64,000 bases of DNA from Eledone cirrhosa (taxonomy: Eukaryota): contig OZ024742.1 in assembly GCA_964016885.1 (NCBI GenBank), forward strand, positions 225,556,001-225,620,000, given 5' to 3'. Position numbers and translations under genes: made by a program. Below the pieces are notes generated by a model. That model was not told the origin of the DNA, searched no databases, and worked only from the letters and a program-made list of their open reading frames with translations. The first letter of the stretch is position 1. Each line of letters begins with the position of its first letter. Below, piece by piece: positions 11,491 through 33,582 of this stretch.

Positions 11491-12099
11491 ATAAGTATGT
11501 ACACGTACATACATATATGTATACAGATGTACAGTAGTATGTATATATATATACATACATGTACACATATATATATGTACGTATGGATTCACCGAACATT
11601 TATTATAATGCTCGATGTGTTTGTAAACAAACATTCCGTATTAAGCCGTAGTGTCTAGCAACCATCGTTGCTCGTTTGTTCAACACTGACAAAGGAACAC
11701 TGTACTAGTTTCAAGCTTATTAGCTATCGTCAGCAATGTATACCTTCCTGCCAGATTGTTGAACGTATATACTTACCTTATGCATATTAACGGCTGAGTA
11801 GCCCAATTTGCATATCGAGTGGGTTAATCGGCCGGGTGCACCGGAAACGATAAACGGAAAAAATGAAACGAAATTTCATTTCCCACTCTTAGTACGGCTG
11901 TTACTTAAATATAAGTATGTACACGTACATACATATATGTATACAGATGTACAGTAGTATGTATATATATATACATACATGCACACATATATATATGTAC
12001 GTATGGATTCACCGAACATTTATTATAATGCTCGGTGTGTTTAAGTAACAGCCGTACTAAGAGTGGGAAATTAAATTTCGTTTCATTTTTTCCGTTTAT
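11491..12099 (-). mobile_element. non-coding hammerhead-bearing Penelope-type/retrozyme element, 420-bp unit, with short inverted arm 12041-12099
   Basis: Sequence at 11491 recurs at 11911; 12041-12099 is the reverse complement of about 11850-11908; second copy at 33090. Confidence 0.75.
11697..11739 (-). ncRNA. type I minimal hammerhead ribozyme
   Basis: ACATTG-CTGACGA-T-AGCT(AATA)AGCT-T-GAAA-CTAGTA^CAGTGT; palindromic helix III ACTAGT, GUA cleavage triplet. Confidence 0.75.
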
Positions 12100-12492
12100 G
12101 TATATATATATATGTATATATATATATATATATATATATATATATATACGTATATATATATACGTATATATATATATGTATATATATATATATATATATA
12201 AAAACAAATAACGAAACAAAATTAAATTTCGTTTCGTTTGTAACTCACTTTTGTATGACTGACGCTTAAACAATTAAGTTAAAAATGTACATCCATATAT
12301 GTATACTGAAATACTAGTATGCATATGAATACACACACGTATACATATGTAGATGTACCAAGTCTTTCACTGGTTACTTTACTGTGAGTATCCAGCTATT
12401 CTGTATGTAAACACACAGACAAACCGGTTTTTAGAGTCATACTGGATTTTGAGGAAACACCTTTCCTCTATTCTCCAGAAAGCCAGACAAGG

Positions 12493-12537
12493 AATATTGA
12501 ACTAGTTTCGTTGTTGTTACAACTCATCAGCAATATT
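12493..12537 (-). ncRNA. type I minimal hammerhead ribozyme
   Basis: AATATTG-CTGATGA-GTTG(TAACAA)CAAC-GAAA-CTAGTT^CAATATT. Confidence 0.85.
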
Positions 12538-12703
12538 TACCTATCTACCGGCCTTTCTGGAAAATCGTAAAAGCACATATCGTTATATGCTTTTTCTATG
12601 AAAATTAGTAGTAGGCAGACTAATTTGCATAGAGTGTGAGTACGTACCGGTTCAACGGAGACGATAAAAACAAATAACGAAACGAAATTAAATTTCATTT
12701 CGT

Positions 12704-12744
12704 TTGCTGATGAGTTGTAACAACAACGAAACTAGTTCAATATT
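12704..12744 (+). ncRNA. hammerhead core with helix I truncated by the inversion junction
   Basis: TTG-CTGATGA-GTTG..CAAC-GAAA-CTAGTT-CAATATT. Confidence 0.7.
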
Positions 12745-13165
12745 CCTTGTCTGGCTTTCTGGAGAATAGAGGAATGGTGTTTCCTAAAAAACCAGTATGA
12801 CTCTAAAAACCGGTTTGTCTGTGTGTCTACATACAGAATAGCTGGATACTCACAGTAAAGTAACCAGTGAAAGACTTGGTACATCTACATATGTATACGT
12901 GTGTGTATTCATATGCATACTAGTATTTCAGTATACATATATGGATGTACATTTTTAACTTAATTGTTTAAGCGTCAGTCATACAAAAGTGAGTTACAAA
13001 CGAAACAAAATTTAATTTCGTTTCGTTATTTGTTTTTATCGTCTCCGTTGAACCGGTACGTACTCACACTCTATGCAAATTAGTCTGCCTACTACTACTT
13101 TTCATAGAAAAAGCATATAACGATATGTGCTTTTACGATTCTCCAGAAAGGCCGGTAGATAGGTA

Positions 13166-13210
13166 AATATTGCTGATGAGTTGTAACAACAACGAAACTA
13201 GTTCAATATT
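13166..13210 (+). ncRNA. type I minimal hammerhead ribozyme
   Basis: Intact core; 7-bp helix I extended via ATTCTCCAGAAAG/CTTTCTGGAGAAT. Confidence 0.85.
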
Positions 13211-29865: not shown

Positions 29866-30959
29866 GTGAGAGAAGGTGTAAATAGGAGGAAAGGCAAGAA
29901 AAAATAAATAAATACATATATAAATACATACATAAATACATAAAAGAATGAATGAGTAAAAGAAATATATAAAAAAGAAAAGAGGAATAATGACAAAAGA
30001 TGGAAAGTGTAAGGAAAGTAAAAGGAATAGAAGGGGATAAAGTAAAATAAAGGAAGCATCAAATAGAGGGGGGTAGAGAAAAAACCGTTGTTTTTAAATG
30101 CAAGATCAAATAGAACATCCAATCAATTCAACTAAACAATTAAATATCTTTAGTATTTGATTATGCATTAGCTAATTATACTTATATATTATATCAAAAT
30201 TAATCAGTATAGATTATTTTCTATAGCAATCACATATATCGTTTAATTAAAAATTTATATAATTTAATTTAACTCATTATGAATTATTATTTTTAATTTT
30301 AAGGTAAGGTATTCTATAAATATTTAGTTACAACTTTAAAAGAATTAATTTTTAAAGCGTATTTAAATAATTATTACATATGCATTAAAATATAATACCA
30401 TACATAAATCAGCATCAATACATATAATATATTTAGATCCTATATTACTCAAATTATTTAATTATGATATTCTCTTTATAAAATCTTCACTATTCTTTAA
30501 TTTTCATTTAATTTCTAGGATTAAACTGCAGTTACATTTACTCTCAAAAGTTTAATTTCATTAATTTAATGAAAGGTTATCTTTACTTCTGTATTTACTT
30601 ATTTTAATATTTAGTTTCATTTTAATGATAGTCTATATTATTATCTACATATTTCATATCTAATATAATTCAGCAAGCTAGTCAAAAAGAAAGGAAATTT
30701 TTACAGACAATGTAAACAAAAGGAAGATAACTCATTCACCATATAAACATTTATAATACATCTCTACTCACACATTCCGCGATATTTTGAAAGTCATAAA
30801 TCATCTATTGCAAATATCATAAAAGATGTCTAGTTAAATATTGAACTATCCTAATCAAAACATAGGATAATGAGTCTCTTAATGAAATAATTCTAATACA
30901 TATAAATAACTTATTACCACAATAAGGCAAAAGCATATATATATTAAATTATTAATTGA

Positions 30960-32630
30960 CAATATTTTTTCAAAACTTGTACAATGCTTGGAAAGTTTTA
31001 CCAATTTTATGGTGACAACTACTGAATAATTCGTTTTTTTTTGTTGATTAAATTGTCATAATTTAGAGTCTTGAAGTTACAAAGATTGAAATTTTGCGAA
31101 ATAGTTGTGTTCTGATAGGAATTGGTTTTCTTTAACTTGGTCCAAAAGATGGAGTATTTAGTATTATTGTCCTTTAAAGACCATATTAATTGTGAGAGGG
31201 AAGTTGAAAATTTCTTATCTGGTTTAGTAAAAGACTGTCTGTGATTATACCAACGTTCCTTAAATTTAGATGAAGTGGCACCAATATAGTTATATATATT
31301 ATTATTTGTCTTAATGGTACATTTATATACTATATTCTTGTCAAGGCAATTATTTTGTAAAGGACATTTGGACTTCTTTCTACAATTACATTTCTTCTCA
31401 ATGTTATTTCCAGACCTTAAACTATTCACATTAATGTTTAGAGGTGTTCTACTATTATTCATATTTAAACTATTATTGTTATTCTCGTTAACTAATGTAT
31501 TGTTATTATTGTTATTATTGATAATTATATGTTGGTTCAAATTAAGATTTTTACTATTTATTTTTGCTATATTTTGAGCAATATTCATAGTTGTTGAATA
31601 AGAAAGTTTAACTGTGTGTCTATTGAAAATAGAGTAATATTTATGTGACCTAGGGAAGCATTTATCCAGGGCTTTAAAAAATAAGTGTGCTACCGTTGTT
31701 TTAATAGCTAAAGATGCTGGCGGAGCATACCAAATTATAGATCTAGTTCTTGTTTTTTTCCCCGATTTATTCCTCAAGTTGTTGTTTTTATATTCATTTT
31801 TATTATGATTAGTGTGATTATAATTAATATTATTTTCAGTATTTTTTTCTATATACTCAATATTATTGTTATATCCAGCTTTATGTAATGCTTCATTATA
31901 ATACACAACCTTACTATTAAATATGGATCTATTAGCAGATAGCCTGGATATTTGTTGTTGTACACTGTTGACTATTGCATTCTTAACAATTTTAGGATGA
32001 TTAGAATAAAAACTAACATGATTTAAATTCTCATTAAGTTTATGGAAAGGATAATAAAGGCCTGAGTTCAAATTAAGAGTCATATCTAAAAAGTTAACTA
32101 TTTTGTTATTATTTTCTACTTCTAATTTCAGGTTGTAATTTAAAAAAAATTCTATAATTACTTTCTTTACTTTATTTAATTCACTATTATTATGTTTTTC
32201 TACAATAAATAGTATGTCGTCTCTATATAAACCTCCGGTAATCTCCGGCAGTTTATCATGTTAAGGATAAAAATTCCCACAAGATCCGTAACTTGCGCCG
32301 AATCAGACGAACCCATAGTAATGTCAAAATTCTTGTGTCTATCTGGTCTAGTCCAAAGATCATTATTAAAATCAATCAAAGTTCGCCTTGCTGTAAATAT
32401 ATATTTATCTCATCACTAGATAAGTCCGTATGTTTATATGCATATGATAGCGCCATATTTAAGAGATTAGGAGTTATCGAGGAATAATAACTTATGTCCA
32501 TTTGAATGAACTTATAATTATTTTTATTTTTGATATTATTGAACCAATCTATGACTTCACTAGTGCCTTTCCATAGGTTTAGCCATGACCTCAATTTAAG
32601 AGTTGGTCAAATCCTATCTATTATATTTTT
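30960..32630 (-). pseudogene. second Penelope-like element ORF remnant (RT + GIY-YIG); AT-rich 3' region extends to about 29870
   Basis: FIQMDI, MGSSDSAQVTDLVG, LYRDD, NFLDMTLNL, SNHP, CNCR..CPL..C...IVYKC...YIGAT...FKERWYNH. Confidence 0.88.
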
Positions 32631-32651
32631 ACTATATACATGTATATATAT

Positions 32652-33048
32652 CATCATCATCATCATCATCATCGTTTAACGTCTATCTTCCATGCTGGCA
32701 TGGATTTAAACGGGAATTGTCCCACTTGGGGTAAGATTGGTTGTCTTGCTTGTATAGGACTGTCTGGCAGGTTTTCTACGGCTGGATGCCCTTCCTAACA
32801 CCAACCACGTTTACAGTGTGGACTGGGAGGTTTTTATCGTGTTACCTACACGACCACATTACAGCGTGGACTGTATGTTTTTTTGTTGTGACACCTACAC
32901 GACGTCATTTATTTAGGACTGGATCTTTTGGTACCAACATAACTTTACATCGAAAGGGGTGGTGTAGATGGGGTGGGGGCAGGGGTGGTGTGACGGGGGT
33001 GTATTTTGGTTAAGAGGTGGCTACTGACTGTAGGTTTCGCTTTGTACT
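32652..33048 (-). mobile_element. RTE variant B-type 3'UTR fragment
   Basis: Homologous to 39022-39440. Confidence 0.8.
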
Positions 33049-33089
33049 TATATATATATATATATATATATATATATATATATATATAT

Positions 33090-33582
33090 ATAAGTATGTA
33101 TACGTACATACACATATGTATACAGACGTACAGTAGTATGTATATATATATATACATACATGCACACATATATATGCACGTATGGATTCACCAAACATTT
33201 ATTATAATGTCCGTTAATATGCATAAGGAAAGTATATACTTTCAGACGTTCAATAATCTGGCAGGAAGGTATACGTTGCTGACGATAGCTAATAAGCTTG
33301 TAACTAGTACAGTATTCCTTTGTCAGTGTTGAACAAATGAGCAACGATGGTTGCTAGACACTGTATGGCTTAATTTGGGATGTTTGTTTACAAACACACC
33401 GGGCATTATAATAAATGTTCGGTGAATCCATACATGCATATATATGTGTGTGCATGTATGTATATATATACATACTACTGTACGTCTGTATACATATGTG
33501 TATGTACGTATACATACTTATATTTAAGTAACAGCCGTACTAAGAGTGGGAAATGAAATTTCGTTTCATTTTTTCCGTTTAT
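33090..33582 (+). mobile_element. second copy of the 420-bp hammerhead family: inverted arm 33090-33213, direct arm 33211-33582
   Basis: Homology to 11491-12099; hammerhead 33273-33315 with GAAA changed to GTAA. Confidence 0.75.

Follow-up and report, generated by a model that had tools for sequence, protein, structure and literature searches.

Three insertions in a 64,000-nt stretch of the Eledone cirrhosa genome (assembly GCA_964016885.1, contig OZ024742.1, positions 225,556,001 to 225,620,000 of the forward strand; hereafter the window, numbered from its first nucleotide) each consist of a minus arm joined to a plus arm, and in both arms the sense 3' end faces outward into (AT)n. The genome carrying the window is 3.0 Gb. 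Inserts I1 and I3 belong to repeat family A (420-nt unit), and I2 belongs to family B (466-nt unit). A preliminary description had placed these inserts, reported that their arms end at two sites of the unit that lie 60 to 75 nt apart and are homologous between the families, and proposed that both ends of a cut (AT)n target prime reverse transcription at these two sites. The three inserts were recovered at the coordinates in Table 1 by BLAST and reading of the sequence, with the ends at one site, S1 (11491, 13897, and 33090), and at the other, S2 (12099, 12198, and 33582), all adjoining (AT)n. Alignment bore out the two sites: the two families are about 68% similar across roughly 210 nt surrounding them, S1 and S2 align between the families, and their spacing is about 60 nt in family A and 69 to 75 nt in family B. 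The genome-wide copies described below suggest that both ends of a staggered cut in AT-rich DNA probably prime reverse transcription, one at S1 and the other at S2, in a programmed form of twin priming, and that the template for both arms is likely the same RNA.

Copies were sampled as 30 + 30 best-hit loci plus the first listed exact matches to the ribozyme 30-mers along contig C1, taken in position order. Overlapping duplicates and loci from protein searches were removed, which left 174 mapped inserts; of these, 9 were discarded because a locus edge or gap truncates them, and the remaining 165, including I1, were counted. The sample is biased to copies that have kept the ribozyme core intact or span a full unit. 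Ends were assigned using end intervals 9 to 17 nt wide, since alignments of older subfamilies stop a few bases before the end. The 165 inserts comprised 87 head-to-head, 1 tail-to-tail, and 77 one-direction copies, and 222 of 251 outward 3' ends lay at S1 or S2. For family A, 144 of 168 ends fell in intervals spanning 32 of the 420 unit positions and, for family B, 78 of 83 fell in 20 of 466, so the random genome-wide termini that the preliminary description had named as fatal to its proposal were not seen. In family B, S1 is spread over unit positions 261 to 267 and is not a single base. Both sites were used in 69 of the head-to-head inserts, one insert was S1+S1, and 17 had one end elsewhere. 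Pairing of S1 with S2 thus held in 69/70 inserts with both ends at a site (binomial p 6e-20) and in 40/40 of the position-ordered subset picked only by an exact ribozyme 30-mer. The predicted tabulation, with two sharp terminus peaks, one per side, variable internal junctions, and (AT)n enrichment, was therefore obtained, and the twin-priming proposal gains support from these counts and from two published reverse-transcription start sites in a Poseidon element (PMC11167929). Among the 77 one-direction inserts, 25 were S1-only; a search for tiny second arms gave 16 matches (control, 9/300), of which 6 obey the pairing rule, 2 doubtful ones break it, and 8 end elsewhere or accompany a main arm that was not classed.

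Two independent insertions back to back in one microsatellite would also leave divergent arms, and members of different families are indeed found together in a single (AT)n tract (I1 next to I2; also loci L082 and L108). However, 50% same-site pairs would then be predicted, against 1/70 seen, and tail-to-tail copies should be as frequent as head-to-head ones, against 1 vs 87; (AT)n between the arms and unrelated arm haplotypes would also be expected. The pairing and orientation counts refute this explanation, which we regard as extremely improbable.

A fold-back artefact of assembly or library preparation is given almost no weight. Among the contig pieces listed, none was shown to bridge the window junction at 12704, but the arms within an insert differ by about 1% (BLAST), their flanks are distinct and carry target duplications, and the ends are conserved in three families. 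Six minus-to-plus joints, located elsewhere in the unit, are present at depths of 6.6 to 23.6 in contigs that come from two sequencing runs on a single sample of the species, and these contigs also show (AT)n behind S2; the sample may be the assembly's own. Read pile-ups in two reduced-representation runs were disregarded, as they end at AATT words and are likely restriction-library joins.

The third family is a young coding Penelope-like element, a relative of the window fragment at 23971-24831, with a 4117-nt unit and a 1210-aa frame. Its protein resembles reverse transcriptase (RT)/HTH_animal/GIY-YIG clusters at 0.96-0.98 and gave no Pfam match. Twelve loci were chosen for opposite-strand match pairs, not for their ends, and in all 12 one arm ends at +26 from the ATG and the opposite arm at +67 to +84, within (AT)n. 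The tail between these ends does not resemble that of family A or B. The S1/S2 rule is real, general within this genome, and built from known parts.

An (AT)n run of at least 10 nt adjoined 173 of the 222 S ends, compared with 24/79 5' ends and 179/2169 background positions. The score was below 6 nt at 22 S ends, some of which lie in (TC)n, (CAT)n, (ATT)n, or unique AT-rich DNA. Of the microsatellite targeting previously proposed, the enrichment stands and the requirement does not: (AT)n is preferred as a target, not required. In an older family A subfamily (L106, L110, and L117), the S2 ends lie in (TC)n instead of (AT)n, and a family B insert (L133) has (CAT)n reading outward at both sides, that is, palindromic flanks. 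Informative flanking direct repeats were found in 17 of 43 young two-armed inserts, compared with 5.9 (maximum, 10) in shuffled flanks. They are mostly 11 to 14 nt long, including 1 to 3 nt common with the element, which gives a target duplication of about 10 to 12 bp and therefore points to a staggered cut with 3' overhangs, an implication established for target-primed insertion. Only 9 of the 251 ends lay in unit-internal AT-rich tracts, which are the best base-pairing sites; the start sites therefore appear to be set by position, not homology.

At 40 young two-piece junctions, the arms overlapped by at least 1 nt in 23 (by 2 to 4 nt in 10), were blunt in 3, and were separated by inserted bases, some of which look copied from the element, in 14. 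The 2- to 4-nt microhomology previously described is thus correct for the three window junctions (3 nt each: TTT, TTG, and CCG) and does not extend to a general rule, being present in only 10 of the 40. Such junctions look like end-joining of two free 3' ends. Arm lengths were uncorrelated (Spearman 0.05, n = 69). In 57 two-piece inserts, the S1 arm reached further in 25 and the S2 arm in 28, so that neither is systematically longer; the S1 arm lay within the S2 arm in 31, and neither contained the other in 15.

These lengths bear on a fold-back origin, in which one end primes and the cDNA folds back to copy itself; the second arm would be cut back to the other site by the endonuclease, and the inequality of the arms would come from deletions that later remove the centre of the palindrome. 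Such a scheme merges self-priming, as read in PMC3846280, with the interpretation of the tail as "EN-mediated resolution" in PMC8557442. It would directly explain private variants shared by the arms (below) and accords with the 31 of 57 nested S1 arms. It also agrees with the coding element, where in 4 of 11 pairs the two arms stop no more than 40 nt from a common position on the RNA (0.46 expected, p 0.0007; a post hoc result with small n). Such co-termination is, however, missing in families A (2/33) and B (2/24), and it would also be expected from two enzymes running off a single linear RNA at its broken 5' end, circles having no end; the coding-element result fits both. The S1 arm reaches further about as often as the S2 arm, the 15 non-nested pairs cannot be yielded by a plain fold-back copy, S1-only inserts are common, and both sites are true start sites on RNA in vitro (PMC11167929). 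Fold-back self-priming is weakened by these results and is considered unlikely.

Under twin priming from one RNA, the two arms should descend from the same template. Arms of one insert were closer to each other than to those of other inserts, with a mean percentile of 0.10 in family B (n = 25, Wilcoxon p 5e-6) and 0.18 in family A (n = 24, Wilcoxon p 6e-5). Private variants common to both arms numbered 14 across 26 family B inserts, compared with 0.5 in 20 shuffles (maximum, 5), and 3 across 43 family A inserts, compared with 0.2. One 9.3-kb insert of about 7 + 13 units has no differing site across both arms. Comparison of mirrored variants between arms was uninformative: 125 variants were singletons, 5 were mirrored, 3 recurred within a single arm, and 2 lay at different positions. 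At one site of a 10.7-kb palindrome of about 23 family B units (L206+L207; G000:C1:56.387-56.398 Mb), a period-3 pattern is confined to one of the arms, which may reflect a trimer template or a block duplication that came later.

A further alternative is template switching. Here a single end would prime at S1 or S2, synthesis by the enzyme or by a repair polymerase would jump to a second, inverted RNA or cDNA from the same source locus, and cleavage or processing at the other site would fix the far end. Switching or templated repair does occur, judging by the 12 of 69 inserts with more than two pieces and by the element-like junction insertions. However, a separate reason is needed for the far end always taking the other site, and a jump onto sense RNA would give tandem, not head-to-head, arms; we hold this explanation to be improbable.

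Programmed twin priming from both cut ends remains the preferred explanation, and several observations weigh against it. One clear insert (L044) is S1+S1, and two doubtful tiny arms also pair with the same site; in 17 of the 87 head-to-head inserts one end lies outside both sites, and 77 of the 165 inserts run in a single direction. Arms of L006, L111, L219, and L052 are no closer than average, and deletions at palindrome centres can erase arm containment. Shared variants could also stem from fold-back copying, from gene conversion between the arms, or from a pair of RNAs transcribed at one source locus. The search for the protein that mobilizes families A and B did not find it: apart from secondary inserts, no A- or B-like tail was present on coding elements in 90 loci (30 relatives each of the 31022-32260 and 23971-24831 fragments and 30 GIY-YIG loci), a sample that takes in a minor fraction of the Penelope families in this genome. 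All of the evidence gathered here is genome sequence. Poseidon in vitro had no strand difference in start site (PMC11167929), an observation that does not bear on pairing within one event.

The proposed sequence of events is as follows. A Penelope protein, predicted elsewhere to be a dimer, would bind the hairpin-bearing tail between S1 and S2, and its GIY-YIG domains would nick both strands about 10 to 12 nt apart to leave two 3' overhangs, each of which would prime with only 1 to 5 nt of A/T pairing. Two antisense cDNAs would then extend to independent lengths, with many rounds if the template is a circle or multimer, and the trailing enzyme would displace the first cDNA; Penelope RT is not known to carry an RNase H. 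The cDNA 3' ends would be joined by microhomology or end-joining, so that each would template the second strand of the other. One-direction inserts would be events in which one end failed, stayed tiny, or was lost. That Penelope-like elements as a class have hard-wired twin priming, with one dimer on one RNA tail assigning S1 and S2 to the two ends and the cDNAs mutually priming second strands, is given an even chance.

Families A and B are non-coding, with no real open reading frame of 100 aa in their units, and are arranged as tandem units, up to about 13 per arm. Both carry a predicted type-I hammerhead core with stems I and II and a palindromic minimal stem III, identified by sequence reading and pattern. 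At the gathering score, Rfam reported no ribozyme in the window, only a tRNA-like repeat, and the output of a generic repeat finder was dominated by (AT)n. The minimum-energy fold of the units lacks the monomer hammerhead core, as is expected of dimer-type hammerhead motifs. Exact ribozyme 30-mers numbered 10,575 (A) and 5,212 (B) genome-wide, compared with 0 for the reversed control. The minimal-stem-III form is typical of Penelope-like elements (PMC4209133). The families combine features of metazoan non-LTR retrozymes (a tandem unit of a few hundred bp, a type-I hammerhead per unit, dispersed high copy number, and target duplications) with those of Penelope insertions (a head-to-head inverted, 5'-truncated copy and a tail extension at one end, in 69/70) and, being non-coding, lack the RT plus GIY-YIG frame of an autonomous Penelope-like element. 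On these sequence features, they are classed as Penelope-type non-LTR retrozymes with putative minimal hammerhead ribozymes. The tail contains a hairpin in both families, of 13 bp in B (z -2.95) and 9 to 12 bp in A (z -1.07); that of family A is not significant alone, and covariation is limited to two families. Just downstream of S2, both families share the octamer ATGCAAAT (A unit 98-105; B unit 370-377, e.g., window 13539-13546), a candidate snRNA-type promoter element like that of newt satellite 2.

Table 1. Features of the three inserts and their flanks in the window; junction coordinates are from BLAST overlaps and direct reading of the assembled sequence.
Feature	Position	Strand	Remarks
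I1, first arm	11491..12042	-	Family A, 1.3 units of 420 nt; 3' end at S1; sampled as L001
I1, second arm	12040..12099	+	60-nt tail alone; 3' end at S2; 3-nt overlap (TTT) with first arm
I1, putative type-I hammerhead motif, family A	11698..11738	-	Palindromic minimal stem III; sequence reading
I1, 19-nt direct repeat, left copy	11474..11492	+	Apparent target duplication; overlaps element ends by a few nt; right copy 12095-12113
(AT)n-rich tract at I1 S1 end	11399..11490		
(AT)n tract separating S2 ends of I1 and I2	12100..12197		
I2, first arm	12198..12706	-	Family B; 3' end at S2 (12198); putative hammerhead 12493-12537
I2, second arm	12704..13897	+	Family B, 2.6 x 466-nt units; 3' end at S1 (13897); 3-nt overlap (TTG)
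I2, plus-arm putative hammerheads	13166-13210 and 13632-13676	+	
13-bp hairpin in family B tail	13464..13494	+	Immediately upstream of S2
(AT)n-rich tract at I2 S1 end	13898..15498		
I3, first arm	33090..33213	-	Short family A arm; 3' end at S1 (33090)
I3, second arm	33211..33582	+	Family A; 3' end at S2 (33582); CCG overlap, one mismatch adjoining
I3, putative hammerhead	about 33274-33314	+	Carries a core substitution
(AT)n tracts at I3 ends	33583..34899; 33049-33089		At S2; at S1

Two Penelope-like fragments lie elsewhere in the window. The region 23121-25593 (-) is a decayed copy of a family that is very young elsewhere (L283-L302; many identical matches), where the 1210-aa frame contains an asparagine-rich insert, the 4117-nt units are in tandem, and a hammerhead-like core lies ~230 nt before the ATG. 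The region 30100-32600 (-) is a fragment from another, older family; its 3' region is long and AT-rich, and no A- or B-like tail was present. Hammerhead motifs of other sequence near GIY-YIG or RT loci (L240, L249, L262, and L282) mark more ribozyme-bearing Penelope families. The window further contains an RTE-type long interspersed nuclear element (LINE) copy with an endonuclease, RT, and PHD-like finger at 53443-56250 (-) and RTE-type LINE fragments at 3700-5586, 16657-18898, 27187-29607, 34900-35954, and 39411-41288; several RTE-type copies are edged by (AT)n. The tRNA-like sequence at 22817-22884 (-) is the head of a dispersed repeat, probably a short interspersed nuclear element (Rfam).

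Penelope-like elements are the closest mobile relatives of telomerase. A near-absolute rule of one site per end in three families allows a sharp test with the existing in vitro system. The same structures are structural evidence that Penelope machinery moves animal retrozymes, and they offer an origin for the thousands of long palindromes that this genome contains. If the proposed mechanism is true, the tail, the inverted pseudo-long terminal repeat (pLTR), and second-strand synthesis would be one mechanism, and on a circular retrozyme RNA the process would become a double rolling circle, laying down palindromes of several kilobases in a single step. In the available text, the completion of Penelope insertion and the origin of inverted repeats with a one-sided tail are undefined in PMC8557442 and left open in PMC11167929.

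Retrozymes are described as non-coding tandem units of 150 to 450 bp with type-I hammerheads, low GC, thousands of copies, and target duplications of more than 4 bp, and are proposed to be moved by Penelope-like elements (PMC7229834; bioRxiv 10.64898/2026.07.22.740005). Families A and B resemble metazoan non-LTR retrozymes in their non-coding tandem units, type-I hammerheads, high copy number, and target duplications; the 466-nt unit of family B is slightly above the size range of PMC7229834 and inside that of bioRxiv 10.64898/2026.07.22.740005. The word "inverted" is absent from PMC7229834, and head-to-head arms, fixed ends, and a tail are not described for retrozymes in the available text of the preprint; that of PMC6765202 had nothing further on element ends. 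Endonuclease-bearing Penelope-like elements (Penelope/Poseidon, Neptune, Nematis, and Naiad) have an inverted pLTR plus a tail (PMC3846280 and PMC8557442), and PMC8557442 reports a one-ended tail, a bias to (TA)n, and resolution by the endonuclease. The tail is 60 to 75 nt in families A and B and 43 to 58 nt in the coding element, compared with 30 to 40 nt in the published elements; in the portions available, both papers treat the tail as optional and ascribe the inversion to self-priming or endonuclease resolution, with no count of pairing per insertion. The Poseidon of the lizard Anolis starts reverse transcription in vitro at two internal sites that are the tail ends, and both target strands are nicked and extended; no homology is needed, the target is AT-rich, a stem-loop lies at the start site, and a dimer is predicted (PMC11167929). 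Families A and B share with it two sites bounding the tail, an AT-rich target, and a stem-loop, while second-strand synthesis and inverted structures are left open there, and use of a different site at each insertion end is not stated in the available part. Four components of the picture are already in print: arms set head to head, a tail on one side only, a bias toward microsatellites, and two start sites of reverse transcription. The preliminary description made no mention of most of these ingredients having been published. In the open literature, searched mostly by title and the start of the abstract, with older Penelope papers, reviews, and subscription papers outside the search, strict one-site-per-end pairing and a shared template were not found, nor was a paper applying twin priming to Penelope elements or counting end pairing. 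What appears to be new is one sharp pairing regularity and one line of same-template evidence.

In L1 twin priming, as reportedly described by Ostertag and Kazazian, both target ends prime, giving head-to-head arms, microhomology joins, and a target duplication. The second priming in L1 is opportunistic and uses variable internal sites found by base pairing, so that the arms cover different RNA segments. Unlike L1 twin priming, the inserts described here use fixed sites with minimal homology, only 9/251 ends lie in internal AT tracts, and both arms re-copy the same sequence.

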